Below the pieces are notes generated by a model. It was not told the DNA's origin. It made no database searches and was given only the letters and a program-made list of their open reading frames with translations. The position numbers were made by a program, and so were the translations under genes. This document shows, in pieces, positions 4,555 to 60,116 of a stretch of DNA of 64,000 nt (its first letter is position 1; each line of letters opens with the position of its first letter). Source of the stretch: Paraspadella gotoi (taxonomy: Eukaryota > Animalia > Chaetognatha); the NCBI GenBank assembly GCA_051294375.1, contig CM119266.1, forward strand, positions 18,284,087-18,348,086, in the 5' to 3' direction.

Positions 4555-4853
4555 CATCGCAGAGATTCAAACTCAAGAGAAACGCGGATCGGCGACGCGA
4601 GTAAGATCGAAGAAGTAAGAATGAACTCTCTCATTGCGCCAGGAACAAAGGCCACCAGCCAGTGACCAGATGGCTTCCTTCCCGCAGGAATTTTTACCCT
4701 TACTCCGATCCTGGAAGACGTAATAAATTGAACAAGAATTGTATTGATTCACTCTGCTGGAATTTGAACACGTCGTCTATAATTTGTTTATCTTACTGGA
4801 AAAATAAATTCATTCTGATTCATATCGAAATCCCTGTCTATCTTACTTAAATG
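4555..4853 (+). repeat. 5' LTR (~299 bp)
   Basis: CATCGCAGAG...TCTTACTTAAATG aligns end to end with 14469-14770, with many small indels. Contains AATAAA motifs. Confidence 0.9.
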
Positions 4854-4872
4854 TGGTGACAGGAGTGGATTC
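4854..4872 (+). promoter_or_regulatory. Primer-binding site, tRNA-Leu-like
   Basis: TGGTGACAGGAGTGGATTC directly abuts the LTR. It resembles the reverse complement of eukaryotic tRNA-Leu 3' ends (TGGTGTCAGGAGTGGGATTC). Confidence 0.8.
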
Positions 4873-4940
4873 AACTCACCACGTCTCCACCAAGAAGAAC
4901 CAAGCCTTACCTCACCGGAACCACGCCACCTTTCAAGAAG

Positions 4941-6167
4941 ATGGACATCCCCTCCGCTCCTACCGTCCCCCCAGCCAAGGCGGGATGGAAAAAGGGAGCT
5001 GCGGCGCCAACCACAAGCACCGCAACTGACGGTAGCAGTACTGCAGCAGACCTCGAGTTCCACACCTTCGAACTCAGTCATAGCCTGCAACAACACTGCC
5101 AAGCAGGCAACGAACACGCCGACGTCACCCTCGAGGTGTTAAAGGTCATCAATGACGTCAATCTACAGAACAGACAAGAAATTGCTGTTCTCAGGAGCCG
5201 CGTCAAAGACTGCGAAGCCAACCTCGGTTCAAAAATCGACGACCTTCGCGGGATGATGCAACAGATGATGGCCCAAGTCAGCGAAAGGAACAACAACCAA
5301 TCCAACGTCAGCGAAAGACTCATGACCCTCTCCCGAGCTCCGCCTCCTCCATCAGGGTTATACCCTGACCTCCGCGGAGCAGCTCGCCCGGACTCATCCC
5401 AAGGACAGTTCATCAGGCAGCCAATAGACAAACACTGCCAAAATCCCCGAGACGAGACGCCCTCCGAAAGCGGGAGAAGTGACCCACCATCCTACAGCCC
5501 ATCCGAACAACCCATCAAGCTCGAGAAGAGGAGATCCGACGAAACACCAGCAGATTTCCTCCGCAGCTTCTACGAAGCCTTCAAAGATTCACCAACCCCG
5601 GACAAGGTTGATCAACAGCTGCGTGCCCTACTGGCTAGAGACAAGGTTGCTAGCCGCTTCATCGAGCCCATAAGCCAATCAATGTGGCTAGGACTCAGGG
5701 CTTTCTGCGAAGGTTCCTCGGTAAGCATTGCCGAAGCCCTCGCAGAAGCAAAGATTGAAGTCGACCCCCACGTACACGCCAAGTATGGATTGGCACTCGT
5801 CAACGCCGCCAGGGAGAACTTCGAAGCCGTCAGAGAGAAAGATAAGGCCTCCATCCCCGACTATGTCGCCCAGATGTTGGTCGAAGCTCTCGAGCCCTAC
5901 GTCCCCGGCATAACATCGGAGACCCTGGAATGGACAACGATGCTTGAAAGAGGCGAAACACGTCGCCTCGGAAAAGCTATAGAATACAAGCTAAGGGGAT
6001 ACCTCAAAAAGACAACTGACAACACCGTCAGGAAAGTTGTCAAAACCGTGTCAGAGGAGGACAAAGAAAAACTCGTCAACGCCCTGGTACAGAAAGGTCA
6101 GACCGACAAGGACCCACGCACGCCAGCGCGACTTCCTTCTACCAAGGCTCCATGTTACAGGAAATGA
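4941..6167 (+). CDS. gag: Gag-like protein (408 aa as assembled; probably extends further)
   Basis: First long ORF after the PBS, with an N-terminal coiled coil, a Pro-rich PPPPSGLYPDL segment and a helical capsid-like region. No CCHC knuckle seen. 6168-6540 still looks coding (basic/acidic peptides) but is frameshifted. Confidence 0.75.
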   Translation: MDIPSAPTVPPAKAGWKKGAAAPTTSTATDGSSTAADLEFHTFELSHSLQQHCQAGNEHADVTLEVLKVINDVNLQNRQEIAVLRSRVKDCEANLGSKIDDLRGMMQQMMAQVSERNNNQSNVSERLMTLSRAPPPPSGLYPDLRGAARPDSSQGQFIRQPIDKHCQNPRDETPSESGRSDPPSYSPSEQPIKLEKRRSDETPADFLRSFYEAFKDSPTPDKVDQQLRALLARDKVASRFIEPISQSMWLGLRAFCEGSSVSIAEALAEAKIEVDPHVHAKYGLALVNAARENFEAVREKDKASIPDYVAQMLVEALEPYVPGITSETLEWTTMLERGETRRLGKAIEYKLRGYLKKTTDNTVRKVVKTVSEEDKEKLVNALVQKGQTDKDPRTPARLPSTKAPCYRK

Positions 6168-6540
6168 ATAACATGAGCAAAAATGAGAGGATCTCAAACG
6201 AGAACTAGGGAGGTCCGGAGGCCAATCAGGACGCCGCGAGGATCGTTATGAACGCCGGGAACAACGCAGCCCAAACAGGGATCATGACAAAAAAATATAC
6301 AAAAATCGCGACTGGAAAAAACCAAGCTGGCGGGATGAAAAGAAAGGAAAAAAGGCCAAAACTTCGGCAGGAGAAGAGATATTGTAGACTTAACTCGTGA
6401 ATTTGATAATGACTCTGCTTCTGATATTGATGAAAATAAAAACGAATACTATTACAACCGCGTTATGAATAAAAAAAAAATAAATAGAAAAGGAAAGACA
6501 GCAGCTAAAAGAGCATTACAAAAACCTCGGGGAGAAAGTC

Positions 6541-9500
6541 ATGGCTATCGACACCCGACCCGTAGAAGGAAACCTTCGAGAAAAGGTGAAAGAACTGGCT
6601 CAAACTGCAAATAAGCTCAGAGGAAAATCTACAGCATCACGTATGCACAAGTTGCTCAAACCTCTCAATGCCAGCGAAATCGCCCTCGCAAACAAATATC
6701 TCCACAAGATGGGATGGAAGGACTGGAGCCTTGTAGATACTGCAGGCAAAAAGGCCATTATATCTAGGTCAAAGGCTTGCGCCAAATTAATGAGAAGGGC
6801 GAGGCGAAATGACGATACCGCCCCCTCTCCTCNNNNNNNNNNTCCTCCACCCTCTCTTCCTCCTTCTCCTCACCCAACCGAAGATTTTAACGCCGATACC
6901 GCCCTCCCCGCCGCTTATCCTCACCCACAACACAAAAAAAATAGACCTAACCCAACGAAACGCGGAGAAAGGTTAGGGCTAAGAAAACTGCGACCAGCTG
7001 GCAGTAAAAACAATCCGACTTACCGCATAATAGCGGGAGAGCAAAATGGAGAGTCTCTTCATCAGGCGACAATCAGGCGAGTTGAACTCGAATGTCACCA
7101 ACCGGAAAACTTCCCACCCCCGCGAAAGAAGCCGGAAACTCACAAAGATGAGAAAGACATGCCGGGACTNNNNNNNNNNCAAGGGACCACAGGACCGGAA
7201 CCCAGGGACGACACGGGTATCAACCGCCTCACTGGGAAGAATAGCTATATCCCAGCAGTAATCGCAGGAGCGCCTGCCAGCTGCCTGTATGACACAGGCG
7301 CGTCGATCAACACTGTGCCACGAAAGTTCGTGGAAAAATGGGGATTATCAAATAGCATTTACCATGGAACCCCGTTACGATTGTCTACCGCTACTGGAAC
7401 AATTACATTAACTGAGAGAATCAACCTCAGAATAATGTTCCAAAAATGGGTTCTACACACTGTCTTCTATGTCTCTGCCGATGAAAACGACCAGGACATA
7501 ATCATCGGCACTGCTATCACCAACCCAGGACCTCCCAACCAGCTTTGGGTAGTCCAACCTTCGGACAAAAGGGAAAACCTACAAGTAGCTTCGATGGACA
7601 GTAAACCCATTACACACTTATTTGGAGATAAGCATGAAGCCCTCAAAGCAGCCAGATGGCTCGCTCGGGGAAATGTTGACGAGCACACTGTCTTACCTAT
7701 ACACTCCGAAAGAGGCGAAGATGGCAAAACTAGAATAACATCAAACAGGGCCTACTGGAAGACCCTGACCGGATCAAGATGGATCGTTGAGGCAAAGAAC
7801 GATGACAAGAGTTACATTGCAGATGGAGACCAACTCAAAGAGGGAGTGGAATTGGATGCTGAACCCGGATATTGGGGAACAGCGCGACCTCTTATAACAA
7901 ATGAAGCCAAGGTCGATCTGCACCTCGAGACCGAGGCCACGGCCGAACCAGTACAGGCCGACTTGTCTGGTGAAAGACCTCTGCTCAGGAAGGTCCGAAA
8001 GGACCACATCCCAGCCACTACAATCGTCCATCACAAGCCAAGTGCGGAGGAGTTGAAAGCAGTGGAGGAAGCACGCCAAAAAAGAAAGCAGAAGCACGAC
8101 GAACGAGGAAAAGAAGCATTCCTAAAGCCGTTCAAGGATGTCGACCCCAGTCTCAAGGACCAAGCACAACAAGTTTGGGAAATCGTCTGGGAATATCGAG
8201 ACGTCTTCGGAGAATCCATCAACGACTGCAAGGAGGGTTTCCTCAACTACAAAGTCGATCTTGGATACACAAACGAGGATCTCCCAAAACCAAAATTTGC
8301 AAACCAAGGACCAGTAAAAAAGGCGGCTCTCAAACGATACCTAGAGGTGNNNNNNNNNNCAGGCATTGTATCACGAACGAGAAATGAGGCATATTCAAAC
8401 GCTTTTCTCATAAAGAAACCTGGACACATCGCTGAAGGGCAAGACCAAATGAACGACGAAACTTTTGCGAAACAATGGCGACTAATATGCGACCTCTCAG
8501 CCGTCAACGATAACATCTCCACCTACGCGACGGAACCACAAACGATAGCTTCGATACTCGAACAATATAAACCACACGAACTCCAGTGCTCAGTAGACAT
8601 CTTAGCTTGCTTTCATCAGGTCAATCTTACAGACCGTTGCAAACCGGTCACAACCTTTGCCGGAGCTGGNNNNNNNNNNTGGATGAATAAGCTGCCAATG
8701 GGGGGAGTCAACAGCGTCAACGTCCTCCAAGCCATCCTGGACGAAATCTTCCAAGATCTAGGCACGGATGTAAAAAGCTTTCTAGTCTATGTTGACGACC
8801 TCATCCTCACAGCAAAATCGCCAGAGGATATGGCCCACAGACTCCGCGATCTCTTACAGAGATGCAGAGATGAGAACGTGGTTCTCAAATGGACAAAAAG
8901 TGTCCTCTTACGCAAGGAAGACATCAAAATCCTTGGCTTCAGTATCTCCAAAAGCAAGCTCATGCCACAAAGGGAGAAACTCGACGCAGTCGAAGTTAAG
9001 CTGAAGTCACTAAAGACGCAAAAAGAGCTAAGAGCAATGCTAGCATCATTAAATTACTACAGATGCTTTACCCATCGCTTCTCTTATATCGCCCAACCCC
9101 TCCATGCCCTCACCTTGCTGGACAAAAAGGACTTTAAACTAACAGACAAACACACAGAAATGCTGCAACTACTCATAGAGGAAATAAGATCATCCCCTGG
9201 CTTAAACTTCTTGAACGACGCAAGGATCAGGCAGGGCTCCTACAGGATTTATGCTGACGCCAGCACAAGCGCGATGGGTGGACTAATAACTGCAACTGCA
9301 GACGGCATCGAATATCCGTTATCATTCCACTCAAAATCGTTTCCTGATGAATACAGGATAAAGCACATCAACGTTCTGGAGACGCTCGCTTTCAACATGA
9401 TGGTCCGAAAATTCAAGGGCTATACCTGTGGACGAAATGTCACCTTGGTCACAGACTCGCAGTACTTTAAGAGAGTGATGGACCTCCAACACGACAGGCA

Positions 9501-11787
9501 GCAACTGCTGCCCACCAATGTGCTCAGATGGATCACTGAAATACGACAAGAATGTCAACCTAGGGAAGTCATCCTCGTCAAGAGCGAGGACAACCCCGCC
9601 GACTTCTTGACCCGATTCACAGACCAAGGGCAAGTAACACCCCTTGACACCCCTTTTTTTCCGGCGGGTTTTGACGTCTCTGGAAAATATGAACCAGGTT
9701 TCGCGGAAAATCCAGTATATGACCAAGAAACCCCAGAGCACTTGGACCTCATCACGGGACACGCCCCGACACTAGCATTAGTAGCAGGAGCACTAACCGA
9801 GGACACGAAGGCATTCAGAGCAAGGTTCTTTGAGTTTGTGCGGCAACAATTTGCACAAAGGAAGGCCAACATTGAAAGATTATACGGCAAGCCAAAAACA
9901 AAAGATCCCGACACTTTCGTGAGAACAATATCAGCCAAGGACTGGTTACTAGGACATCCAGAACTAGAAATGCTCAGCGAGATGACGGGAATCACCCTGA
10001 TTATGATGGACGAGGACTCTACCAAAGAAGCAGGCTGCAAATTCGAAAGGGTTTATGGCTTACCAACGAACAGCAGAACTCTGAAAATATTCAGAACAAT
10101 CACAGGACAAGTTAGTCTAGTCAGTGATGAAAGCCAGACATCACCCTTACGACCGGCCACCCTCGAACCCATCCAAACAATCAAAGTTGATACACTCAAA
10201 CAACCAGAGCGCAGAGGCCGGCCAAAGACCCTCAAAGTCGACATACATCACATCGACGCCCTCCCTGAGGACTTCATAAATTTACAAGTAGATGCCGCCA
10301 GCGCCAACGCCACCCTGACATCAAAACCACCAATGGAGTTGTCTCACACCATAGAAGCGTCAAACACCAACTGGCCCGGCGCTCACCAAGAACTCATGAT
10401 TGACAGCACCCTCGAAGCAGACGTCGACGCCACGGAAGATGAAATCGCGGAAGAGATCAAAGAACCGCAAGAAAAGCAATCTAACATCGTCCCCATCGCC
10501 TCTGAAATAAAAAGATGGCAAAATGAAGATGAATCCTTCAAACTAGTCATTGAAGCCCTTAAGGAGGGCGATCGCGAAAAGGCGAGGCAGAAATTGGACG
10601 AAAAGATGCAAAAGAGAAAAACAACTACTGAAAAATACTTGTCAAACTGCATGGACGACCTCGACGTCACCAAAAATAACATTCTAATAATCAAAGGCTT
10701 CAAGGCAAACACCCCCACAAAAAAATTTGTGGTACCAACCTCAAAGGCAGAAGAAATCACAAAACAACTCCACGAACGCTTTGGGCACCCTGGACGCGAT
10801 CGAACAGCCTTTATTGCAGCCCAGTACATCTCAGCTCCAGGGCTCACAGCGGCCGCCGCCAAATGCCTTCGAAACTGCGACAACTGCGCCAAAGCGACGG
10901 ACGCGCAGCGACATAATGAAACACCATCAAACCCAAACCTAGCCATCGCCCCCTGGGAGTCGCTTAGCATCGACGTTATGCACCTCCCTCAAGTCGCTGG
11001 ATATAACTACATACTAGTAGCCTCAGACAATGCATCGGCATACACCTGGGCTATACCATTGCGCAGAGCAGACGCCACAACAATCGTGAAGGCCCTCGAT
11101 GAAAAGATCTTCCTCCAACATGGATCCTACATGGAAGTGAACTTCGACGGAGCAACACAACTAAATGGTTCGGCGATGAAATCAATACTAGACCTACTAG
11201 ACACAGTGGGCAGACGCGTCCTTGTGGGCAGGAAGGACAGCAACAGAGCAGAAAGAGATATCGGCAGAATCCGCCAAGCATTACGGAAAGCAGTAGACGA
11301 CCAGCCAAACAAATGGCTTGAACAACTACCGCACCTCATGCTCCTCCTCAATGCGACACCCATAGTAGGTTGGAAGACAGATATGTCGCCACACGAAATC
11401 CAGTTTGGCCACAGGCCAAGAATAGTTGAAAGCGCCGATGACTTTACAAAAAGAAATCTCATCGACTTTATCAGACAAAGGGCAAACAAACAGGAAGAAG
11501 CCCAAGCACAACTGGCCAAACAGAGAACTAAGCTCTACAAAAAATCGGCCAGAAGAAATCCATACAGACAGCCAGAGGAGATTAAGGTCGGCGACCTGGT
11601 CCTGACCAGACGTGATCTGATTATGAACGGAGCAGCGACGACCGAAAACAAGGTTAAAAGAATTTATTCTGGCCCTCACAAAGTAGTAGAGAAAGATGGA
11701 AACCACTACGTCGTCTCCATAGCCGGCAGGAATCTAAAGTATCACAGACGCCGCCTCAAAAGACATGAGACAAAAACTACAAAATAG
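6541..11787 (+). CDS. pol: Pol polyprotein (protease, RT, RNase H, OTU-like insert, integrase)
   Basis: Protease LYDTGAS (~7290); RT WRLICDL, DILACFHQV, LPMG, YVDD (~8790); RNase H YADAS...ETLA...TDS...NPADFLTR (~9250-9615); integrase HERFGH...CDNC, D-D-E (SIDVM, NFDGA, AERDIG) and GPY/F-like YSGPHKV. Four 10-N gaps interrupt the ORF. Confidence 0.95.
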   Translation: MAIDTRPVEGNLREKVKELAQTANKLRGKSTASRMHKLLKPLNASEIALANKYLHKMGWKDWSLVDTAGKKAIISRSKACAKLMRRARRNDDTAPSPXXXXPPPSLPPSPHPTEDFNADTALPAAYPHPQHKKNRPNPTKRGERLGLRKLRPAGSKNNPTYRIIAGEQNGESLHQATIRRVELECHQPENFPPPRKKPETHKDEKDMPGXXXXQGTTGPEPRDDTGINRLTGKNSYIPAVIAGAPASCLYDTGASINTVPRKFVEKWGLSNSIYHGTPLRLSTATGTITLTERINLRIMFQKWVLHTVFYVSADENDQDIIIGTAITNPGPPNQLWVVQPSDKRENLQVASMDSKPITHLFGDKHEALKAARWLARGNVDEHTVLPIHSERGEDGKTRITSNRAYWKTLTGSRWIVEAKNDDKSYIADGDQLKEGVELDAEPGYWGTARPLITNEAKVDLHLETEATAEPVQADLSGERPLLRKVRKDHIPATTIVHHKPSAEELKAVEEARQKRKQKHDERGKEAFLKPFKDVDPSLKDQAQQVWEIVWEYRDVFGESINDCKEGFLNYKVDLGYTNEDLPKPKFANQGPVKKAALKRYLEVXXXXGIVSRTRNEAYSNAFLIKKPGHIAEGQDQMNDETFAKQWRLICDLSAVNDNISTYATEPQTIASILEQYKPHELQCSVDILACFHQVNLTDRCKPVTTFAGAXXXXWMNKLPMGGVNSVNVLQAILDEIFQDLGTDVKSFLVYVDDLILTAKSPEDMAHRLRDLLQRCRDENVVLKWTKSVLLRKEDIKILGFSISKSKLMPQREKLDAVEVKLKSLKTQKELRAMLASLNYYRCFTHRFSYIAQPLHALTLLDKKDFKLTDKHTEMLQLLIEEIRSSPGLNFLNDARIRQGSYRIYADASTSAMGGLITATADGIEYPLSFHSKSFPDEYRIKHINVLETLAFNMMVRKFKGYTCGRNVTLVTDSQYFKRVMDLQHDRQQLLPTNVLRWITEIRQECQPREVILVKSEDNPADFLTRFTDQGQVTPLDTPFFPAGFDVSGKYEPGFAENPVYDQETPEHLDLITGHAPTLALVAGALTEDTKAFRARFFEFVRQQFAQRKANIERLYGKPKTKDPDTFVRTISAKDWLLGHPELEMLSEMTGITLIMMDEDSTKEAGCKFERVYGLPTNSRTLKIFRTITGQVSLVSDESQTSPLRPATLEPIQTIKVDTLKQPERRGRPKTLKVDIHHIDALPEDFINLQVDAASANATLTSKPPMELSHTIEASNTNWPGAHQELMIDSTLEADVDATEDEIAEEIKEPQEKQSNIVPIASEIKRWQNEDESFKLVIEALKEGDREKARQKLDEKMQKRKTTTEKYLSNCMDDLDVTKNNILIIKGFKANTPTKKFVVPTSKAEEITKQLHERFGHPGRDRTAFIAAQYISAPGLTAAAAKCLRNCDNCAKATDAQRHNETPSNPNLAIAPWESLSIDVMHLPQVAGYNYILVASDNASAYTWAIPLRRADATTIVKALDEKIFLQHGSYMEVNFDGATQLNGSAMKSILDLLDTVGRRVLVGRKDSNRAERDIGRIRQALRKAVDDQPNKWLEQLPHLMLLLNATPIVGWKTDMSPHEIQFGHRPRIVESADDFTKRNLIDFIRQRANKQEEAQAQLAKQRTKLYKKSARRNPYRQPEEIKVGDLVLTRRDLIMNGAATTENKVKRIYSGPHKVVEKDGNHYVVSIAGRNLKYHRRRLKRHETKTTK

Positions 11788-12305
11788 ATATTCTTTTCTC
11801 TTCTCCAAAAGAAAAAGAAATATATTTTTTCTCTCCAAAAGACGTAGACAAGTAGACGAGACACAAAGATGTAGACAAAGTAGACGAGACACAAAAACGT
11901 AGACATACAACAATAGAAGCCCCGGAAACAGACAGAAACAATCTCGCCTATCCTCTCAAGCGACCAGCAAAAAAAGAAGAAACAACAACAAAAAAAAAAA
12001 AAACAAAAGACTTCCGGAAAGCCACGGAACAAGGCTCCTCCGCGAAGCGACGATCGATAACAAAGGCCCTCGCCTCGCCAAAACAAAAAAGAAGCCAAGA
12101 GAAAGAAAGAAAGCGACGAGAAGGAAGGTTTAAAAGGACGACGCCGAGAGGGAACTCCACCATTCCAAATCAAGATTCTCTCTCAAAAAGAAGCTCGAGA
12201 CACAGAATCCGAAAACAAAAATTATTTTTTGCTTTTCGAAATTCTCTCTCTCTCTTTTCGAAATTCTCTCTCTCTCCCTTGACAAGAAGAAACAAAAAAA
12301 AACAG

Positions 12306-12494
12306 AGTCTTTTTAAAGACTAAGCCCAAAAGTCTTTTTTAAGACTAATCTAAAAAGATCATCTAAACCAAAAGTCTTTTTAAAGACTAAGCCCAAAAGT
12401 CTTTTTTAAGACTCATCTAAAAAGATCATCCAAACCAAAAGTCTTTTTAAAGACTAAGCCCAAAGGTCTTTTTTAAGACTAATCTAAAAAGATC
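12306..12494. repeat. Three 67-bp tandem units, each containing two 16-bp palindromes AGTCTTTTTWAAGACT
   Basis: Palindromes start at 12306, 12331, 12373, 12398, 12440 and 12465, in the pol-env spacer. Confidence 0.9.
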
Positions 12495-12533
12495 GGCAAA
12501 ATAAAAGGGTCCCAGAACTCAGCTCAAAGGAAG

Positions 12534-14435
12534 ATGATAGCGATAGCCTTCCTTTGCGTCAGCGTCACCCTCGTCAACTGGGTATCGGTGGATGGAGCCA
12601 ACCACCCAACTGACGTCGTCCAAATTTACGACTGCAATAAAACTTCAGATCACGCTGCAACGATGTTAGATCCGCATCACTGTGACAACATAACGCCGGT
12701 TACAGAGAAAATAAGCCGCGGCGAACTCGTGTTCATCCCCAGCAAAGAAGAACACGACGGGAAGGGATGCGACTTGACCATTATGGCATCTGGCAGCGTA
12801 TGTGGATGGTGGTCCATCCAATACCCGAACCTGAAGGCAGTGGACCACTTCACGCTCACCAGGATGCAGTGCCTCAAATTACACAAAGGAGAGCGCATTT
12901 CGCTAGACAACATCCCCGTCAAACTAGCAGATCGCACGGGAGTGATGAGACCACTCATGATCGAAGGTGGAAAACTCGGACTAAACCAAGCAACTCACGA
13001 GATAGGCACTACCGATGCAGATGGCTACTGCACAGGAGAAAAGCTAATCTTCCATGACTATACATACGATGGTGAGAGAGCCACCCTCACGATCAATCTC
13101 ACTCTCTACGAACAGAAGGTTCGGCTGGAAAACATTGGAAACATGCCCAGCAGAACTGACTGTGACAAAGCGTCGCAAGCCTGCACCTATCCAGGTGGAA
13201 TCCTGGCATGGAAGGACCCCAGCTGCCGGGCTCATCGGGCCTACACAGGGCCGATAGCACGCAGCACAGATGGCTTCATCAGGACCCTAACCCAAGCCGA
13301 CAAAGAAACTGCACTAAAGAACTGCACCCTTAGAGATGGCAAGACGCCCTGCAGCCAAAATCAAGAAATAAAAAGAAATCCGACCAGCTGCTGGAAAGAA
13401 TGCCTCAGCTCCTTCGTCCGGCCCAAAAACCTGGATAATTATGAACGCTGTGCACCAATCTGTGAGACTCAAAACAAGCTACTGTTTACACTACGGCTGG
13501 CGGGAAAACGGAAGCATGTACCAGGTTGCGACATCGAAGTGGAGGAAACCAACTCCCCCCACTTCTACTTCACCAACCAAGTCACTCGCGACCTGGCCAC
13601 AGATGAAAAATTAATCGAGGCATTACGGGAGAAAGGATCGAGATTGGCAGTAGAAAATCACGAGAGCCTTACTGCCTTATCCAGAGCACTACGCAAAGAA
13701 ATTTGCGACCTCAAGGTCACGGAGGCACGAGCAACTGCAGCCGTGGCCCACAAAAACCCCACCTCAACAACCTTCCTAAAGAGAGGGGTGGTCGCAATCA
13801 TAAGAGGCGAGCTGCTAGTCACGGCCAAGTGTGACGAGACGCTTGCCCATGTCCGAACCACCAAAGAGTGTTACCATGATCTTCCTATCACCTTCAGAGG
13901 CCAGCAAGTCTACAGACACTCCATCCACCATCACGTCGTCAAATCATCAACACAAACAAAATGCTCCCCGCCACCAATCTACCTCATAAACGGAAAATAT
14001 AGGACAGTAGATGGCGAACAGCATAACAACTATCAGCACATAACTTCAAACCTGCCAAACACGCATGATCACGTCTCGAACGAGCAACAAATCTACCTGC
14101 AAATTGGGGACTTCCTTATCCAGCACGACAAATTCACTAAGGATCAGCAGGACTTCAAGAAGTACGTCGGCGAAATATCAAGAGGATCACCTTACACAAC
14201 CATAAAAAGAATCTTCGGGAATATCCCAAAGTGGACGTGGCTGGCCGATGCATCGAACCTCATCCCATTCATCTCGATCATCGTGACAATTATCATAGGA
14301 ATAGCGCTAGCCTGTTACTGCTGCCCGCCCTGCACCGCAAGACGAGCACCACAACAACCCGAAACCTTGACCTTGGAACAGGTCCGAAACAGGATATTCG
14401 TCCCCCTCACGGTCTCGACTCCAGCTACCGACTGA
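12534..14435 (+). CDS. env: Env glycoprotein, chuvirus-G-like / class III (gB-type) fusion protein, 633 aa
   Basis: Signal peptide, Cys-rich ectodomain with YDC, CGWWS, DGYCTG, GILAWKDPSC, GELLVTAKC, R-T-T-K-E-C-Y-H-D-L-P motifs, C-terminal TM helix (LIPFISIIVTIIIGIALA), juxtamembrane CYCCPPC and a short tail. It ends just before the PPT. Confidence 0.85.
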   Translation: MIAIAFLCVSVTLVNWVSVDGANHPTDVVQIYDCNKTSDHAATMLDPHHCDNITPVTEKISRGELVFIPSKEEHDGKGCDLTIMASGSVCGWWSIQYPNLKAVDHFTLTRMQCLKLHKGERISLDNIPVKLADRTGVMRPLMIEGGKLGLNQATHEIGTTDADGYCTGEKLIFHDYTYDGERATLTINLTLYEQKVRLENIGNMPSRTDCDKASQACTYPGGILAWKDPSCRAHRAYTGPIARSTDGFIRTLTQADKETALKNCTLRDGKTPCSQNQEIKRNPTSCWKECLSSFVRPKNLDNYERCAPICETQNKLLFTLRLAGKRKHVPGCDIEVEETNSPHFYFTNQVTRDLATDEKLIEALREKGSRLAVENHESLTALSRALRKEICDLKVTEARATAAVAHKNPTSTTFLKRGVVAIIRGELLVTAKCDETLAHVRTTKECYHDLPITFRGQQVYRHSIHHHVVKSSTQTKCSPPPIYLINGKYRTVDGEQHNNYQHITSNLPNTHDHVSNEQQIYLQIGDFLIQHDKFTKDQQDFKKYVGEISRGSPYTTIKRIFGNIPKWTWLADASNLIPFISIIVTIIIGIALACYCCPPCTARRAPQQPETLTLEQVRNRIFVPLTVSTPATD

Positions 14436-14452
14436 CCACGTACGCTGTCGTC

Positions 14453-14466
14453 AGAGGAGGGGGGGA
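14453..14466 (+). promoter_or_regulatory. Polypurine tract
   Basis: AGAGGAGGGGGGGA, 2 nt upstream of the 3' LTR start. Confidence 0.85.
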
Positions 14467-14468
14467 CG

Positions 14469-14770
14469 CATCGCAGAGGAATCAAACTCAAGAAACCGGA
14501 TCGGCGACGCGAGTAGAAGATTCGAAGGAAGTAAAATGGAACTCTCTCATTGGCCAGGAGACAAATGGCACCAGCCAATGACCAGATGGGCTTCCTTCCG
14601 CCGAGGAATTTTTACCCTTACCTCCGATCCGATGGAAGAGTATAAATTGGGAACAAAATTGTATTGATTCACTCTGCCTGGAATTTGACACCGTCTTAAT
14701 ATTGTTTATCTTCTGAGAAATAAATTCCATTCTGATTTCATATCGAAATCCCTGTCTACTTACTTAAATG
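14469..14770 (+). repeat. 3' LTR (~302 bp)
   Basis: CATCGCAGAG...TACTTAAATG, a direct repeat of 4555-4853. Confidence 0.9.
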
Positions 14771-15209
14771 TAATCAGATTCTTTTCAAAAAGCTTGCATA
14801 TTTTTGGAAAAGCATTCCCGAATTTGAAAGATGGACAACACAAATAATTTTTCCAGACAGTCAACACCACAATTTCAAACCATATACCAGAGCTATTTGT
14901 TATCATGGCTTTAGAAAATATGTCAATAAAATGAAAAATTGAATTTGTTGAATTTTTAACAATTTCATTTCTTTATCTTAGCTAAAAGTTTGAATACTTT
15001 TGGGAAAGCGTTTTTGAATTGGAAAATGGACATTTCAAATGGTTTATACGAATAACAAAAGCGGACAGTAAAATCGTTCAGTAGAGCCTATCCTATTGTT
15101 ATGAAAGTTTTCAACATTTTGCAGATCAAATAAAAAAAGAATTTTGAAAAATTCTAAGTATTGTTGTTTACTTTTTTTTACTTTTTATACAATATTTTAA
15201 GTTTGACAG

Positions 15210-18200
15210 ACGTTGCGAGTTTTTTTCAGAAGAAAATGAAACTGAAGATATAAATAACATTATGAGTCAAACATCGGGGGCGATAACGCAGGCAACTGCC
15301 CCTACACCTCTACTGACAATTCCAATCATACCTTCTCACCATCAGGTATAAACGAAATTCGGGCAATATCTTATCTTGATAATGGCTTTTTAAGTTTTGG
15401 TCTAAAATTATTTTATGTTTCACCTTTAAAATATGTTTTGAGAAAGGATGTTTACCTCGAGTCCACCTTGCACAACAGATTCCCTTATTTGCATTCCCTT
15501 TGCCACCACACGTCGTCATCCCTGCGACATTTCAAACTCCGGCTTCCACTATTGTATCGTCGACAGGGACAACGTTTGTCAGTACTCAATGTCAACCTCC
15601 TATTCTTAGACCGCAAAGCGAACAGGTATATTTTTTAAAAGTTTACTGCCAGCCATAAAACCATTTTAACCTACTCTTCACCCTCTAAAGACTCAGGATG
15701 AAGAGGGCGAAACCCCTATGGACTGCTCGGTTTCTCAACCGCCCGTCCTCCATCCCGAGTCGGACACAGAGGAAGAGCAGGTGGACATGGAGATGCCGAT
15801 TGAGAATAGAGTGCCTCAACCTCCAGTTTTGCACCCGGAAAACGAAGAGAAGGACAACCAACCACCTGTTCTGCACCCAGAGGCTATTCAAGTGCAGCAA
15901 ATTCATCAGGTTCCCCAAGTGCAGACCGTGCAGACGGTACAGGGGGTACAAACTGTGCAACAAGTGCAGGGGGTGCAGACAGTGCAGCAATTGCAACCTA
16001 TTCATCAAATTCAGCAGGTAAGAGAAAAATAATTCTTCTCTGGTTTATATTTCAATTTCATAATTAATATCTTTCCTCACTGAACTATGAACTCACTTGC
16101 CTGTCAGGTGGTTTGCACCGATGCGAATGGAATCAAAATGAACTACACTATCCCGGTGGACAAAGCTACCATCATCGTGAAAAACCCCAACACCTCAAAG
16201 AGCAGCAGCGGGTAAGGTCGGAATAAAAGGCAAACGTTAAATTTGAACAAAACCTTTGACATTCGAATCATGATTAGGATAGTACCAAAATAAAAAATTT
16301 ACTAGTTTTAAACAAACCTGTTAACGATGATGAAGGCTTGAAAATAAAGCCGAAACATGTCCGTTTTATTCCAATAAAACAAAAATCGTTGTGGAAATTC
16401 TAAATCAAACTTCTCTTAAAGTTTTAGATTTTAAAATATTTACTAATATGTATTATTTTATTTTTTTTAATATATTTTTATTGTTAGTTTTTATTAGCTT
16501 TCTTTTAAAATAATAAAAACCGAAAAACTTACTATTATTGGGAAAGGTATATTAGTGTTATCTTCAGGAAATAGAGGGAGTGTGGCGATATATTCACACC
16601 GCCTCAAGAGCATCTATACAATACTAGGTTTTATTACTTTCTGCCCTAGTTTTCTAAAATATACATCATTCCTACAAGAAAGGCAATAATGAAAACCTAA
16701 AAGGCTAAACATAAAGAGGTGGAAATGGATAATTTCCCCCCCCCCCCGTGTCCGTTCGTGATTGACACCAAAAAAATGCGTACCATTTCTCATTGGATAA
16801 ATATTTTTTAAATTTTCTTTTCTCATTCTATAGCAAAGTACTTGACGTTTATTATATTTTAATTTCATGAGATTAATTTGATATTTACTTATGTAAAACC
16901 TTTCTTTAATGGTCATCCATTTTCATCTTTAGTAAAAAACTGAAGCTTTAAAAAAAATAAAATCATTAGAAATTAATTACTCATTAATTACTTAAAATTA
17001 TTAAAATTCATTTACACCATTAAATTAAGAATTATCTGGGAATCCTTACGATATAAAATAATTATTTAAGACAGTCAAGAACAAGGACAGCATTTTTTCT
17101 AATTGTACGAATTGTATAAAGAAAACTTGAGATTTACAATTTAAAAAAATAAATAAAAAAATCATTACTCAGAAGTTACACAACATTACGATAATTTAGA
17201 TACGCTATTGATTAGACCATTAATAAGGATTTCTTATGATGTAAAATTTTTTTATAATTCAATCAAGAACACGCCTAAAATTGTCTTTTTTCGCAAATTT
17301 TACTGTGTTAGATAAAAAATTAAACATAGAATAGTAAATGAATTAAACACGAAATGAAACATACATAAAAAACGTCAAATAGTTCTCCAACTAATGATAT
17401 ACTTATGAATTATATTTATTAAATATTTAAAGTATAGTAAAGATTTTTTTGGTATCACTCGCGAACGGACACGGTAGTTAAAATTGGTTACAAAAACATA
17501 TAATTTTTTTATATTATTAAGGATAAGAATATGAAGTAAAATAGGATCTGACTGTAGTCCGCCACTACAGGTGGGTTAGACGTTCTTTCCCGCTTACTAG
17601 TATTGACGCCAATGGGGCGCGAACCCAAGACCGCTTGTTGGAAAGAGAGAATTCTTGCTCTTACGCAACCGGGGCTGCCCTGATAGACTCAGGCGGGTAG
17701 CAATAGTAAATTTTTTGCCACACACATTTATATGTTGAATGTAATTTAAAACATTATCTCAAATAATTTACCTTTTAATTTTTATTTTATTTTATTTTAT
17801 TTTTATTTTATTTATATTTTAACGCTTTTGCGCATAAGTATCGTCGTCGTCGTCATTCCAAATTATAGATTATATGATTAAAAATTTTTTTTTCTTAAAT
17901 CGCAAAATATAATTTTTCTGTCTTTGAATTAATTTTTTTTTTTCAAATTTGAATTTTTTAGTATCAAAATTTGTCGTCAATCCAGATTTTTTTATGCGAT
18001 TGCGACGATCCTTATGCTTTTAAGATTTTTTATATTATTTCTTGTTCGTTGGTTCTCTTTTTGTTCACATTAATTTATTTTTTAAAACAATAAGTTTATC
18101 AGTTGGAAACCTATCGCCTTCATAGATTTCGTCTCTTTAATCCTAATATCCAGCCAAATGGTGATCCTTCTATCAATGTTATATGAAGGTTTCAGGTTAT

Positions 18201-21082
18201 ATTTTGAATACTTATGATAAATAAGATTTATAATTCACCAAGACCCTAATATCACAGTTATAATTATAATATTTTTATACATTTCATTTTTTTATATTTA
18301 TATTTTCTTTTAGATAGGAGAGGAGCTGGTTTACTCGCTCAATCTAATACATTATTGTAATTTACTTACCCCCCAAAATTGTACAATTTTTTCAATTCAA
18401 TTGTATGAAAAGTATTAGATCGGGGAATACTATATTTGTACTCCGCCCAGAATCAAAATGATAGAGACAGAACAAAACTTTTAAAATTTTAAATTTACAG
18501 ATTCAAAATTATTAAATAGAACGTGTAAATGTATTTTAAAATAAAACGTTTTCCACTTAAAGCGGCGGAAGTTCATCACAACACAAAAAGACGATCCAGT
18601 GCCCTACCCCTGGATGTTCGGGCATCGGCCACGTTTCGGGCAACTACGCCTCGCATCGGACCCTGTCGGGATGCCCGTGGGCGGATCGGGCCATGGTGCG
18701 GCAAAATCACGTGGAACTCAAATGCCCGACGCCGGGCTGCAAGGGGGAAGGACACTCGACGGGAAACTACACTCATCATCGGAGTTTGTCAGGCTGCCCG
18801 TTGGCCAACAAGCCGAGAAAGTCCTTGCACCAATCGGGGGTAAGCGACAGCCAGCGAGCTGTTTCAAAAGGGAACCGAATAATATTTAATCAAATGCGCG
18901 GCTTCATGAAGCAAAATCCCACACCCCCCTTTTCCCAGAATCTCAATCTCTTGGCCAACGCGGCGACGTCGGTTGCTGCGGCATCGGCTGAGGAGGAAGA
19001 GGAAGCGGAGGAGGAAGAACCGCCGGAGTTCGACTCGGCGACGGGAGCGGTAGTGGAGGAGCCGCTGGAGACGGCAGTCGACGCCTCCGAAGTCGGCAAC
19101 TCTGCCGTCTCGGATTCGGGATCGGCCGATTCCAAGACGGACTCCGAAGGGCTGCTCACCATCGACGAGACGGCCGAGGCGTCGCGTGACGGTGAGGAAA
19201 GAGTGGAAGTGAAGGAAGAGGGCTGAGGGAGAGATCAATGGAGGGTAAATTCGAGTTGCTTATGATAGTTATGACTCCCTATAACCGTTTATAACATATA
19301 AATTATTTATGTATAAACTACATTTTTCTATGCCCCTCTTTAACAGTCGGCGCAGACCCTGAGGCGGCCGCGACTTCAAACGCCTTGAAGACGACGCGGC
19401 CCCTCCCGCCAATGGGCTCCGTTTACACAATGACCGGATCTTTTCCCGCGCCGGAATCTCACTCGGCGTTCATAGCCGCTACCGGTGAGTTTCGTTGGAG
19501 GAAAGAAAGGGGGAAAAGTAGGAAGAAAAGAGGGAATACTAAAACCTACGTATAAGAACGGAACAAAGGTTATCATGTTGGATTTACTTCTGTGTTAAAA
19601 AGTGGTTGAAACCGATATGAAAATTCATTCCAAACGTCTACAACAGGTTATCATCCTTATGAATGAATATTCAATATTCCCTGCGGTTTTAATCGAATAA
19701 AAGGATAACTGAATTAATGTATTGGATCGGGGAAATTTCCCAAATCATTGTACTTCGCATTATTTCTCCCGCTCTCTGTCTACTAACCACACTTTTCTCC
19801 CAATGCTCTCTACCAGGCTCCCAGGTCCCACCATCCCTAAATTGCACTTACGTCCACTTGCCGATGTCCTCTTATCAAGTCGCCCGCGACGGAGCGGAGA
19901 GCGACGACGACGACAACGACGACAACGAAGACGATGACAACGACAACGCCGTCGACGTGGAGGACACGAGTGACGAACCCAGCGACGCTCAACTGGCGGC
20001 GTTGCGCGACCATATCGGCGCCGGAGCGACTTTCCTCGTCGACGGCGAGGCGGCGCAGGGAGAAGGAGTCGTGGAGGAGGAGGAAGAAGAGGATGAAGAA
20101 GAGGAAGAGCCGGATGGAGAAGAATTGGTAGAAAACAATCGAACGATCGTGGAATCGGATCAAACAACGATCCTCGATGGAAACGAAAGACCGCAAGTGG
20201 CGCTTAAGACGTCAGAAGATGCGGCGCTAATGGACGTGGAGCCCGGTCTCGTCGCGGAATCCGTCGTCGTCTCTTCGTCGCGATCGACGGCTCTCTCCTC
20301 TTATAACGACGCCGGCGTCGTAAAATCCGGCGAGGCGGGATTACAGACAAAACCTGCGCCGAAACCGCGGGCAAAGATCGGGGGCGTTGTATTTAACGAG
20401 AAGAGGGAGAGCGTGCGGTACGAGAGTTGCCCGACGCCGGGATGCGACGGGTCGGGTCATTCCAATGGGACCTTCTTGTCCCACAGGAGTTTGTCGGGTA
20501 AAAGTGGAAATCTTCGGGTAAAATCTGTACATTAATCACTTCACAAACTGACACTTTTTGCGCTTCCCCTTAGGCTGTCCCAGAGCCTCCGTCGCCTTAA
20601 AACGAGCAAAGCTTTCGGCAGAGGAAATCAATCAAATCCACCTCAAAGCCGCGCAAGGTAAGGACAGAGATATTGTAAGATATATTGGCATAGGGAATTA
20701 AACAGCGTCAACTTAAGAAAAGGAACCTTGGCTGAAATGCATCTTCACTTGCATAGAAAAACAAATTCTAAACAATTAAATAACTAAGTTTAATAACAAA
20801 ATAAAATCCAATGGGTAAATCACAAAAAGTAACCCTTCGCCCGGATCTTCTATAGGTCAAGACCTCGAAAACGATGAGGTCCTCCTTTCCCTCGACGGCG
20901 ACATCCTCGATCTACAAAAGGACAACGCGCGACTAGAGACGTCGATGATCGAATTGCGGACGGAGATCGCCTCTATGGAATCATCCTTACGGCAGAGGAT
21001 CCGGGAGAACAAGGCCTTGGAGGAGAACATCCAACACCTCACCAAGTATCACGAGTTCATGAAGAAGACGAACAAGTGTTGA
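15210..21082 (+). CDS. MYT1: MYT1/MYT1L/ST18-family CCHHC (C2HC) zinc-finger transcription factor, multi-exon
   Basis: Three CPTPGC-x-G-x-GH-x7-HR(S/T)LSGCP fingers (18600, ~18723, ~20428) and the family C-terminal coiled coil (20856-21082). Phase-compatible GT-AG exons: 15210-15345, 15479-15625, 15691-16017, 16108-16211, 18563-~19244 (needs a 1-nt fix near 19222), 19347-19484, 19817-20497, 20574-20657, 20856-21082. True start uncertain (ATG 15262 or further upstream). The symbol denotes the family. Confidence 0.85.
17546..17680 (-). mobile_element. tRNA-derived SINE-like copy
   Basis: Minus strand has a tRNA-like head with a B-box-like GGGTTCGCGCCCC. Its 3' part (TAACCCACCTGTAG...CTACAGTCAGATCC) resembles 31462-31498. 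Confidence 0.5.
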
Positions 21083-22464
21083 GAAAAGTCGGATAGGGTA
21101 GGGAGGGATGAGTTGGGAGGGACGGATGATGAAGGGGATGGGAAAGTTTGCTGGGTAATTATATACAGTAGTTCGTAAACGGAAGGGACAAGTGAGAAAC
21201 AATCAGATTTATTTACTCCGATAAGGTAGTTCCTTCGAGGTTCCCGCTTAACATATCGAAGTTTAACTCGCGTAGATGATACGTACAAAGATTCCCTGTG
21301 TAGACTGTGATGGTTTTTATATGTCACGGAAGAACAACGCCCCTATCCCATTTAGCCATGCTTGCGATATTTTATAATAACGACTGTGCGTCTTGTGAAC
21401 GGTTGGAGGCTTTTACTTTAAATCGCCTTTAACGTAATATTTTTTCCTTGTTAACGATGCTTCACGTATTTTTTCTAGTCTTTCATGTCCAACTGGTAAC
21501 CGTAAATGTTCACACCCAAGGTTATTACTTTATTTATACCTCTCGTCGCCCTACTATTTTTCGTGTTTTCCGAACAGATTATTTTAATTTATTGGGTTTT
21601 AACTTATTTTACTTTTCATTGTCGGATTTTACAGTTCGCTACGTCTATTTAATGTTTTATCTTCGTAGTCTGCTAAAATATTTCGTATCATAATACGATT
21701 GCTGACTTTTTTTTCCGATTCGATCTCATTTTTTAACCAATTATTTTTTGTTAGTTCTGATTTAAATTTAATTTTATTTAATTTTTTTTACACTCGTCTT
21801 ATTACTGAATCGTTTTTAGCAAAATAAAACAAATCTTAAGCTTTATATTTTTATTTCGCCCCAATACTGACAAGGGTCTTCATTTTAAGTCTTCGTCATG
21901 GTTATTGAAAACGAGTTAGATCTGAAAAGTTTTATATTAACTTTTTAAGATTTTTTAGTCTGTGTGATTTTTTTCGCCTCTTACGATCAACAATGTATGG
22001 AAATTTCATTACACGAAAAATAAAAAATAACAATTGACAGAAACTTTTTCAAAAACCACACAAAACCCTCACCACCCCAAGCCCTAACTACCCCTAACCC
22101 CCGATCAGCACTGACTCCTAACCACAACGAGTCACCCATAATTGCTCACCTAAAAAGGTAATGATGTATACGAGACTGGGTAGGTTCAGGGGACGAAAGA
22201 AAAAATAGTGCCGTTAAATCTTACCCGTTTTTTCTGTTAATTGTCACGCCTCTTGGAGGACAAGGTACTGCAGTTAGCGAAGCATTAACAAAACGGTTCC
22301 CAAAGTTTAGTAGTAAAAATATTTTAGTGACGCTCCTTCTGTAAAAAGAGTAATAATAAACTTACCCAAGTAGAGATTATATAAAACAAACACAAATTTG
22401 CGATTGTTCCAAAAAAGAAATCCGACATTTTTTTGGGTAAATATGGATAAATTATCTTAATCTA

Positions 22465-23366
22465 CAGTGTCTCAAGCGTACTGTCACTTTACAAATGAGC
22501 ACTGGGTCAAATTGGTAAAGTGAATTATTAATTTGAAAGAACCACCGAAAAGATAAGTTCATACAGTTTATCGGTATCTCTATTATCTTATTTGTATTTT
22601 TATTGACTCAATGAGCCGTTCAATTGAGGGAGAATTTTTATTTTGACAATCCATCAAAAAAATTAGCTGTTATTAAATTTATATAGTCCGGCATTTAGTT
22701 TAAAAAAATGATTGTACATGTTACATTGTGCCTTTTCCTAAGAATTTTGAAGATTGGGAATGATTGACGATAATGATTTTAGAGGTAAAGATGCAAAGAA
22801 TGATTGAAAAGGAAATTTGTTTTAATGGACGCTCATTAAGTTTACCTTCAGGAAACTGATAACCACTGTGAATTTAGTGTGCTATGATTCAGAATATAAT
22901 CTGAGATGTATAGAGTATTTTTACTGCTAAAACTATTTTCCAGCTGACTGCAGCTTATATGCATTGCCAATGTATTTTGCTGTAGCAAACTATCTAATTA
23001 TCCACTGCATTCTTTCATTTTGAACCAATTAAATACTTTCAAATCCGGAAGGAGTATGGTGAAAATCTGTAGGGAAAGGCCTATGATCATCATTATACCA
23101 AGGCGACATATTATGATTTAAGCAAGTAACTAAAAAAAATCGTTTAGGTTATTGGAAAGATTTGAATATTATAAAATTGAAAAAAAAAAAAAAATTCTTA
23201 AATTTGCTTTGAGTGCTGATAAAATGTAAAATAATAATTTGATTTTAAATATAAAAACATAAAACTGTAACAACTTCTGGATCTAACGAGTACAGTAGAT
23301 GCATTTTTTATAATTGTACTGATTCACTGTATTCATTTGTAAAGTGACACTACGCTTTAGACACTG
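22465..23366. mobile_element. Non-autonomous Tc1/mariner-type DNA transposon
   Basis: ~34-bp imperfect TIRs CAGTGTCTCAAGCGTACTGTCACTTTACAAATGA / TCATTTGTAAAGTGACACTACGCTTTAGACACTG, flanked by TA on both sides. No ORF. Confidence 0.8.
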
Positions 23367-23401
23367 TAGATCTCGTAAACTTTGTTTACCAATTTTATTT
23401 A

Positions 23402-24350
23402 CATGGTAACAATTTTACAAGCACCGGTAGAAATACGCTGTCATTTGCAAACCAGTAGTTATTTCATTGATTTTAAAAATTAGTTGAGTAGAAAATACTA
23501 AAACTATTTATGTATTAAAATTTTATATTGATCAGTTAAGATATGCCTTGACAATGAGTGGAGAAAGTTGGCTTTTCAAATCGGGTTTCATTTTCCAACT
23601 CACTGTTTTTAAATTAAATTTTTTTTGGGAACTTTTAGCACTTTTTTAAACAAAGTATTTATTAAAATATTAACAATATTAATATCCTCAGTAAGCCCTT
23701 AAAAATATGAAGAGAATGATATACTTACGAAGGCTCTAACATAAAAAGTAAGCTGCCCAGCCTTGGTTCAATTAAGAGTATCAAAAGTGAATTATTTAAA
23801 ATTTTTCAAAATATATGACCTGTTTAAATTATTATAACCTAAAATATTATTATTTATATAAGAATCATGAAAGAGCCTGAAAAAAAATATTTATGATAGC
23901 CAATCACAATTTGATAAAAATCATAAATTTACTCTCCAGCTATTGATTTTTAAAATATATCTCGTTTTTGAGTATCCTAATTAAATTAAAGCTGGGCCAA
24001 TTAAATTTTATACTACAGTATTCGTAAGTATATCATTCTCTTCATATTTTTAAGGGCTTACTGAGGATATTAATATTGTTAATATTTTAATAAATACTTT
24101 ATTTAAAAAAGTGCTAAAAGTTCTTAAAAAAAAGTGAATTTAAAAACAGTGAGTTGGAAAATGAAACCCGATTTTAAAAGCTAACTTTCTCCACTCATTG
24201 TCAAGGCATATCTTAACTGATCAATATAAAATTTTAACACATAAATAGTTTTAGTATTTTCTACTTAACTAATTTTTAAAATCAATAAAATAACCACTGG
24301 TTTGCAAATGACAGCGTATTTCTACCGGCGCTTGTAAAATTGTCACCATG
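23402..24350. mobile_element. Foldback MITE with ~330-bp TIRs and TA target duplication
   Basis: 23402-~23730 is the near-perfect reverse complement of ~24020-24350 (CATGGTAACAATTTTACAAG... / ...CTTGTAAAATTGTCACCATG). TA on both flanks. Confidence 0.9.
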
Positions 24351-25115
24351 TACAAATTAGATTCGTTAAACTGTCGGAAAAAATCGTTACCAAATACACA
24401 TAGTCAATACGACTAAATAATATAAATCCAACAGTTAGAGTCCCGAACGACAAGACACACCGGTTTTAAGAACAAAAATTAGAGAGAGGAATAAGCCACC
24501 AGTTCACGACGCAAAGTGAACACTGACCAGTGACAGTCACAAATTACAATTTTCATTTCGTCCTTTCGATCATGGAAATTGTTTTGATGGTAAAATATAG
24601 TCATGGGCCTATACATATATATTAACTTTATGTTGAATCTGGAACGAAAAAAAATGTTTCAAAACAACGTTGACATAACATCGACAACAGTCATCTATCA
24701 TCTTATTGCGTAAAAATGGCAAGAATATTTTTCGGTAATAATGAAAGTAATAAACGCAGTTAACGTTGGACATGGGGCAAATCGATTAGGCAATAGGACA
24801 TTTAGATTGAACAATAAACACTGATTGGACATTAAGATTGGAAAATGGACGCTGAGATTGGACATTCAGATAAAATGAGATCTTAGAAAAAAAAGGATTG
24901 TTCAGAAGCAGACGATCGTGAAGAGACGAACCGTCAGATCACTGGATTTGAATTTCGATAGGACGACGATTTTCGTTCTCGATTTAAATATCTCTTTTGT
25001 TATAGTTCCGTCGATTTAAACTAATTTTTTGCAATAGAAGGGTTTTTTTTCTCTTTCTGTTCTCATCCCTCCTTTCCCCTTTTCATGAAACAATTGTACA
25101 ATGTACCCTAGAACC

Positions 25116-28548: not shown

Positions 28549-28953
28549 CCTCTTCCTAGGTCAGTGGCGCCACATTTCGGTGGAAGGTGAGCGTGACGTA
28601 GAACTCGTGGGGCGTAAATCGGGAGACGCAGAATCGAGACTCATCGCTTTTTATTGTATCATTGTATGGACTTAAAATTTGTGTTTTTAACAAGTTGTAC
28701 TATGTAAGAAATTGAACATTTAACAAGATCAAAAGTGTAACTTTTAACGAGGTGGTGTGGACGAACAACCGCGTCCACAGTGGTATTTTTCTAACAAGTC
28801 AGTAAGAAAGAATTCGCGAATTAAAAAGAGTCATATGTGGTAGTAAAAATAACAGGATTAAAATCACAATAAGTAGCTTGGTTAAGAAGAATATGGCATT
28901 TTGGTGAAAAAGAATAGTTTAACGAAGTAAACATTGTTCCAACAAAGTTATGT

Positions 28954-38482: not shown

Positions 38483-39009
38483 CGTCTGTTGAAGAGGAGG
38501 AGATCATCGGAAGAGGAAGGGTTAGTTTAGTTAGTTTAGTTTAGTTTAATTTTTGGGAATTAGTTGGATTCCTATACACAGTAAAAACGAAAAGAGATAA
38601 AAAAATCAGGCCAAGTTAATGTTCTCGATATTTCTCCTTATTAAAATAAATCCGAGGCCTATAATTTTGCTCGTCTCATGTTTAATAATTGTTTATCGAT
38701 GAATGATTAATTAATATCAAATTTTAATCTCCACGGGCTCACAAGTTTGTAAGCATACAGCGTTCAACTACAGCGTTGGCAGCGTTTTTTTTTTTCTGAA
38801 AGGAAAAAGGAAAACAACAATGTTACTCATTCTGAAGAATTGGATGTTAAGCAATTGTATGGTCAACATTGAAATAAAATATAAAAATGAAAATGAGAGC
38901 AGAGAGTTTTCATGTTAAATGGGAGCGAGCAGACAATTTTTAATTTTGTTTTGAGTATTTGAATGTTTTGGAACATTATAGGAAAGTTGCTATTAAAGAA
39001 GAAGCGTTT

Positions 39010-41484: not shown

Positions 41485-41895
41485 AAAAAGCGAAGATTAG
41501 GCAAAAACATGAAAATAATCCTACTTTGTGGAATACACGAATACAGTGATTATCCACAATGAATGCCAGAGAGACTGTCTATAGCCATAAATCAATAGTA
41601 CATGACAATGAGATTGTATTTAGTAGCATACAAAAAACCGTAGAATAAAGTGTCTGGACTTAGAGAAAAGGATCGGAAACAATTCATAAAATATAATTTT
41701 ATGAGAGGATTATATAAATATGACCAGTTTTATGACGTAATTTCAGCCCGAAACCACGAAAGCAATTTTTTAAAGAGATTTATTAGAATTTGAATTTTTT
41801 GGTTATCTCAAAACCGAAGGGCAGGCTCGTTATTCAAATTGGCCCAATTATCGCAATCATTCGCCAAATCTACGTCTTGTAGTGATCTAATATCA

Positions 41896-49792: not shown

Positions 49793-60116
<10,324 letters not shown>

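Follow-up and report, generated by a model that had tools for sequence, protein, structure and literature searches.

We propose, with a probability of roughly 0.85, that an unbroken env gene in a Ty3/gypsy LTR element of Paraspadella gotoi encodes the class III fusion protein of the element's particle, and that it has likely been with this element lineage for long. The gene, which codes for a fusion glycoprotein of the gB/Monjiviricetes type (12534..14435, + strand, 633 aa plus stop), is the third open reading frame of an element that spans about 4555–14770. All positions refer to the window, i.e., the whole 64,000-nucleotide stretch of contig CM119266.1 that was analyzed. What we established for env is the layout of the element around it, its family membership by profile, 14 core cysteines and a family match that is collinear over both halves of the protein.

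Alignment of the two LTRs to each other placed the 5′ LTR, about 300 bp long, at 4555..4853 and the 3′ LTR at 14469..14770 (both +). The pair has 279 matches, 5 mismatches and 29 gap blocks; so many gaps next to so few mismatches resemble long-read error, and we hence rejected LTR divergence as a dating tool. The LTR termini read CAT...ATG in the assembly instead of TG...CA (4555, 14770), which may be an assembly error, and no target-site duplication was visible at the element ends. Directly 3′ of the 5′ LTR lies a primer binding site, likely of the tRNA-Leu type, whose reverse complement ends in CCA (4854..4871, +). Compared by eye with the table of such sites in the accessible part of PMC13524379, its 12 nt showed two differences from Leu-type rows and one from a row labelled 'others'; no tRNA gene for comparison was found in the window. 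Just 5′ of the 3′ LTR lies a polypurine tract (14453..14466, +).

ORF1 (4860..6167, +, 435 aa from stop to stop) is called gag by position only. Neither Pfam nor PDB yielded a capsid match for it, and weak matches to VG15 or histone H4 lay under the cut-off and were set aside. In pol (6484..11787, +), Pfam and motifs gave protease (7249–7512), reverse transcriptase (8476–8946), RNase H (9142–9537) and integrase (about 10732–11553) in Ty3/gypsy order, all on the + strand. Reverse transcriptase and integrase share one continuous reading frame, in which four masked 10-base stretches were read as X. Its best PDB match was Ty3 Gag-Pol (E 2.5e-38). Some 280 aa between protease and reverse transcriptase (7510–8340) had no family match. 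With the reverse transcriptase/RNase H region, we found a single relative at E <1e-20, 29% identical, among 5528 candidates, a search limited to word-sharing proteins of 971–3093 aa that understates relatives. ORF1 stops at 6167, the pol frame opens at 6484, and contigs of all four public sequencing runs have gaps against the window in pieces that cross or come near this region; the gag–pol junction (6150–6500) is probably an assembly error zone and its intactness is in doubt.

The env frame, in contrast to this junction, is uninterrupted across 12534–14435. Contigs from all four runs cover it free of gaps with 0, 0, 2 and 1 differences, respectively, where three of the runs are possible sources of the assembly itself. 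The original prediction had described a particular cysteine and motif order with a C-terminal transmembrane anchor, and this was borne out by a motif scan of the translation. All 11 named motifs occur once each and in the stated order, i.e., YDC (aa 32), CxLxIxxxxxxCGWWS (79), GWWSIQY (91), CxxLHxG (113), GxxDxDGYCTG (158), FHDYTY (173), GxxxWxxxxC (222), ETNSPHFYF (338), GELLVTAKC (425), RTTKECYHDLP (441) and YLINGK (483). Hydropathy peaks at aa 1–19 and aa 576–594 mark a predicted signal peptide (12534..12590, +, hydropathy 2.19) and the transmembrane anchor (14259..14315, +, 2.8); the sequence behind the anchor is cysteine-rich at first and ends in a tail of some 40 aa. Likewise, there is no furin site ahead of a hydrophobic fusion peptide, as had been claimed: R-x-K/R-R is absent from the whole 633 aa, neither of the two minimal RxxR matches (232, 384) is followed by a hydrophobic segment, and a hydropathy scan found no internal window above 1.1. 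We therefore rejected an F-type (class I) env, which also had no F family listed in Pfam up to E 1. Immediately 5′ of env, the repeat listing shows three tandem 67-nt repeats (12306..12506, +), which are preceded by a pyrimidine-rich tract as a candidate splice acceptor. No spliced env joint was present among the contigs listed.

Env scored 73.6 bits against Pfam PF24664, Monjiviricetes_fusion (cut-off 27, E 1.1e-20), the sole Pfam family listed for it up to E 1. The 89 proteins found by a full HMMER scan include one full-length relative at 30% identity (P0002, with a longer cluster mate, P0091), about twenty fragments at 28–38% identity and many proteins of 530–860 aa that match best, for the most part, over env aa 330–540. 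PF24664 was matched by 81 of the 91 aligned sequences. An HMM built on 42 distant full-length relatives gave env 163 bits, with 57 for the N-terminal and 111 for the C-terminal half; these relatives had been found via similarity to env about aa 330–540, and only the N-terminal score is near-independent. Reversed env scored −2.4 with the same HMM and none of 1000 shuffles exceeded 4.9. Judged from its sequence, the likeness of env to the PF24664 family is not due to chance.

Word-index protein searches found nothing, either for env alone or for a 67-row alignment, and a single-sequence PDB search with env had 0 matches. With a 67-row profile of env and its relatives, 35 of 38 PDB matches were herpesvirus gB (best E 1.2e-4). 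In the Atlas, Monjiviricetes_fusion and rhabdovirus G clusters came first for env, at 0.96 and with a low recognition value, and the list ended with a coronavirus spike cluster at 0.91.

The 14 core cysteines of env (34, 50, 79, 90, 113, 166, 210, 217, 231, 332, 391, 433, 446 and 477) are each matched in 74–100% of the 42 distant relatives in a 43-row full-length alignment, at identities of 15.6–19.9%. Twenty distant relatives were looked up and three had informative names: the G proteins of Coleopteran chu-related virus OKIAV151 and of Hardyhead chuvirus, and an Aethina tumida protein.

Folded from its single sequence, env gave an unusable model (pLDDT 34); with 91 sequences, the ectodomain model reached pLDDT 76 and pTM 0.50. 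The predicted architecture comprises signal-peptide entry into the ER, an elongated fusion domain (about aa 71–229), a long central helix and a single anchor. The helix, aa 358–407 (model helix 338–387; 13605..13754, +), is the predicted trimer core by analogy with class III fusogens. When the model was compared with the PDB, all 40 rows listed by Foldseek were herpesvirus gB, and all 50 listed by VIA-align were gB, lyssavirus G or thogotovirus GP. The fusion domain superimposed on 9jme_A with Z 7.0 (rmsd 4.8, 135 residues) and domain IV on 5ys2_F with Z 6.7 (rmsd 5.4, 150 residues). Domain-level matches, which include gB, Mokola G and Dhori GP, ranged from Z 5.2 to 7.4. None reached 8, and whole-model TM-scores were 0.15–0.28, because domain packing is ill-defined in the model (pTM 0.50). 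At these middling Z values, the modelled folds of fusion domain, central helix and domain IV fit class III, an assignment that leans on their agreement with the sequence evidence.

In a library of viral structures, a chu-like virus glycoprotein came first (E 1.5e-23), tied with a xinmovirus protein (1.6e-23) and followed in order by qin-related, chu-related, rhabdo-like, nyavirus, bornavirus, entomopoxvirus and herpesvirus proteins. The Jingchuvirales G scaffold named in the original prediction is hence supported as class III and gB/chuvirus-G-like but not in its specificity, since xinmovirus and qin-related glycoproteins score alike. The PF24664 match, the gB profile matches and the structure rows, all of them class III, support env as a family member of gB/chuvirus-G type and not as an F-type protein. 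Neither profile nor structure comparison had its best match in a class I, class II or cellular protein.

Two aromatic segments stand out in the modelled fusion domain. GWWSIQY (aa 91–97, 12804..12824, +) directly follows C90 and lies between two long strands, and FHDYTY (aa 173–178, 13050..13067, +) lies in a short hairpin after C166, with its F/Y-H conserved among close relatives. In register with the VSV G sequence, GWWSIQY comes after the second domain-I cysteine and the FHDYTY hairpin after the fourth. In VSV G, the aromatic loop found at the place of GWWSIQY, behind the second domain-I cysteine, is presumably a fusion loop. Both segments of env would thus occupy the expected positions of class III fusion loops, and we regard them as a candidate pair.

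Between C231 and C332, the alignment revealed about 50 inserted residues that include six additional cysteines (264, 273, 286, 290, 306, 310; 13296..13478, +). The span measures 101 aa with 6 cysteines in env and 92 aa with 6 cysteines in P0091; its equivalent in the 42 other relatives has a median of 47 aa, with 0 cysteines in 41 of them. The six-cysteine insert is common to env and one full-length relative and absent in the 42 others. It was modelled at pLDDT of about 37–59, with no confident fold. A second trait concerns the distance from CYxxLP to the anchor, which is 128–131 aa in env (131), P0091 and P0004, compared with a median of 158 aa in the 30 of the 42 relatives that were measured. 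The membrane-proximal region of env is thus shorter than in these distant relatives.

A quick maximum-likelihood tree of 43 full-length relatives and 2 fragments set env and its close relatives apart from the other rows by a stem of 2.3 changes per site (SH-aLRT 100). In a second one, of 22 of those relatives with the longest branches dropped, env was isolated, with a path of 6.8 to the nearest outside row. Both trees had no outgroup and carried long-branch warnings, and in neither was env placed beside one of the two named chuvirus G proteins. Env appears as a long separate branch, and nothing indicates a recent capture. The original prediction had taken the motif order as specific for Jingchuvirales, which would imply a chuvirus donor. 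We could not uphold this, as xinmovirus and qin-related proteins match equally and env has its own long stem; by eye, the motif pattern also recurs in gypsy envs of insects and flatworms in the accessible part of PMC13524379.

A fairly recent capture from a chuvirus would parallel the Pao-borne Anakin of mosquitoes, a precedent described in the available text of PMC7642597. It would agree with the chu-like glycoprotein at the top of the viral structure matches and with the 14 of 14 core cysteines that env has in common with both OKIAV151 and Hardyhead chuvirus G. The identity to both these proteins is 19%, however, no different from that to the 42 distant relatives as a whole (15.6–19.9%), the xinmovirus protein ties with the top match, and the trees keep env apart from both named chuviruses. 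Moreover, env codon usage correlates with that of gag and pol (r 0.69 each), whereas r for three host ORF sets lies between −0.26 and 0.34, as expected after long residence. We therefore consider a recent chuvirus origin very unlikely; going by its sequence, env has likely long been resident in this element lineage.

A donor might alternatively have been an unsampled lineage of negative-strand RNA viruses whose G already carried the insert, so that the P0091 group would be viral and not made up of retroelement genes. Negarnaviricota indeed dominate the env family in the Atlas. ENA and JGI data supplied the close relatives, on short contigs, with P0091 on one of 5.6 kb. Eight of them that we looked up besides P0002 and P0001 are 126–288 aa long on contigs of 0.7–1.5 kb, and metagenome scans for loci of the close relatives yielded no confirmed locus. 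Yet most are short fragments and several end in unrelated sequence, which would rather suit decayed genomic copies. We judge such a donor unlikely, and it would be compatible with the same entry mechanism.

Contig depth hints at a few near-identical copies of the element, although contig depth does not equal copy number; most, but not all, HSV/gB-type errantiviruses occur in multiple such copies. Env contigs had a depth of 355 in run X2, compared with 89–112 for neighbouring host contigs, 20.5 in X3 (host 8–15) and 28 in X6 (host 6–18); in X7, they showed 8.5–11.8 and no excess over host contigs (3–16). At the LTR (14393–14811), contig depth summed to a level tens of times higher than inside the element, which suggests many solo LTRs or related families. 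One X6 contig has 33 differences to ORF1 over 365 bases, which suggests a related subfamily. In X7, whose RNA nature is a guess, contigs cover gag, pol and env, and one contig joins two host exons; because non-coding stretches are covered as well, its coverage does not demonstrate env transcription. No contig joining both flanks, i.e., an empty site, was found among those listed, with the 5′ flank poorly covered.

Downstream of the element, Pfam found a host gene that encodes C2HC zinc fingers (PF01530) at 15689–16017, 18561–19226 and 19693–20535 (+), which we take to be MYT1-like (15689–20535). The X7 contig that spans two exons joins 15689–16014 to 18562, and its first 289 letters fall outside 13400–23300; an intron of the gene may therefore hold the element, in the same orientation. 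Such zinc-finger genes with introns mark the host as an animal. Further along the window, long inverted repeats at 23400–24352 and 43749–45756 (396-nt arms at 91%, and nested arms over about 2 kb) are likely non-autonomous DNA transposons. Exons at about 28950–33090 (−) presumably belong to a Cdc6-like gene. C2H2-type zinc-finger ORFs occur at 37325–38503 (+) and 39691–41496 (−), a satellite of about 28-nt units with many indels at about 49900–50960, and a transporter-like ORF at 58385–59470 (−).

An intact env need not serve entry. It could be the passenger of a recently copied element, as near-identical copies can stay open without selection, or it could have a host role such as receptor blocking, which the available text of PMC7642597 proposes for solo glycoproteins. 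The gene is not solo, however, but lies between two LTRs, and at 29% identity (29–30% for the best relative of env) env and P0091 have kept every core cysteine along with the signal peptide, the two aromatic loops and the anchor, which implies long selection. We hence think it quite improbable that env has no part in entry.

As the fusion protein of a particle, env would be made with a signal peptide of its own and be held in the membrane by one helix. A subgenomic RNA is its probable template, with the upstream pyrimidine tract as candidate splice acceptor. From class III biology, it would be expected to trimerise with no need for furin cleavage. GWWSIQY and FHDYTY would then insert into the target membrane, and env would refold and fuse the membranes. 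In this way, particles from one cell could enter another and, for instance, reach the germline from the soma, as Drosophila gypsy does. Three disulfides may form within the six-cysteine insert and make it a small added module; receptor binding or trigger control seems its most likely, if speculative, role.

A further feature of the element is a pol stretch of about 400 aa that bridges RNase H and integrase. In the ESM Atlas, Pol aa 1060–1240 retrieved OTU-bearing clusters at 0.91 (recognition 2440), with PF02338 on 19–20% of the members in two of the three clusters shown, and a possible OTU-like domain was placed at 9739..10119 (+). Pfam and PDB sequence searches gave no OTU match for the bridge. 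At what we take to be the positions of the catalytic OTU motifs, Cys and His are missing. We treat a catalytically dead OTU-like fold as a lead only. Our literature search found no OTU inside the Pol of an LTR retrotransposon; OTU domains are reported, in the accessible part of PMC2836005, for Ginger DNA transposons (in the transposases) and Helitrons.

Gypsy elements with a chuvirus-like gB-type env are already published, and the env described here is a divergent one. From its available text, PMC13524379 (Chary and Hayashi, eLife 2026) covers 1512 env-carrying gypsy elements, many of them gB-type, and the Chuviridae-like glycoprotein of mosquito BEL/Pao adjoins gypsy POL in 114 elements, too. 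Our main claim thus adds one more example of a published kind, and its value lies in its distance (29–30% for env, 29% for reverse transcriptase/RNase H). The same source states as unknown how gB-type errantiviruses enter without herpes gD/gH/gL; the receptor or trigger function that they lack could, as a concrete candidate, reside in a lineage-specific six-cysteine insert such as that of this unbroken env. Branches as deep as this one also bear on the direction of transfer, i.e., from RNA viruses to retroelements or the reverse. Should the env stem prove to lie beyond every chuvirus, xinmovirus and qinvirus G protein, it would favour retroelements as a long-term reservoir, possibly a source, of this glycoprotein family. 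It is a bolder and rather doubtful proposal that the element represents a deep unsampled lineage of enveloped gypsy, with its own disulfide-rich env module as candidate receptor-binding domain and a dead, ubiquitin-chain-binding OTU fold in Pol.

The Jingchuvirales G proteins (OKIAV151, QMP82321.1; Hardyhead chuvirus, QUF61512.1) and the wider PF24664 family have the same 14 core cysteines and motif order as env and are collinear with it over aa 2–244 and 337–498. They are RNA virus genes at 19% identity with CGxH in loop 1 of both named proteins, whereas env is retroelement-borne, has CGWWS there and carries the insert. Anakin (Dezordi et al. 2020, PMC7642597), as far as the accessible text describes it, likewise bears a chuvirus G in an LTR retrotransposon, but a Pao element, in contrast to the Ty3/gypsy-like Pol here. 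For genes derived from Jingchuvirales, the available part of PMC10084718 mentions gypsy fragments beside them and no clear gypsy capture; elements of that sort were then described in PMC13524379. Herpesvirus gB, lyssavirus G and thogotovirus GP match env in fold at the domain level (Z 5.2–7.4), and gB also by profile, at 6–15% identity; their global superposition is poor because of the ill-defined packing of the env model.

Closest in kind are the HSV/gB-type errantiviruses, to which the following comparison applies within the accessible sections and supplementary files of PMC13524379. They have in common with the element here the order LTR-gag-pol-env, a Ty3/gypsy Pol, a tRNA primer binding site and a gB-type env with signal peptide and anchor for which a furin site is not required. 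A six-cysteine insert was not seen in the domain I–II rows compared, and the seven supplementary files contain neither CGWW nor CTYPG motifs. The bridge of about 400 aa with its possible OTU-like fold is not among the bridge domains of section 7. Finally, the insect gB-type envs are reported to have one fusion loop, whereas env of P. gotoi presents two aromatic candidates.
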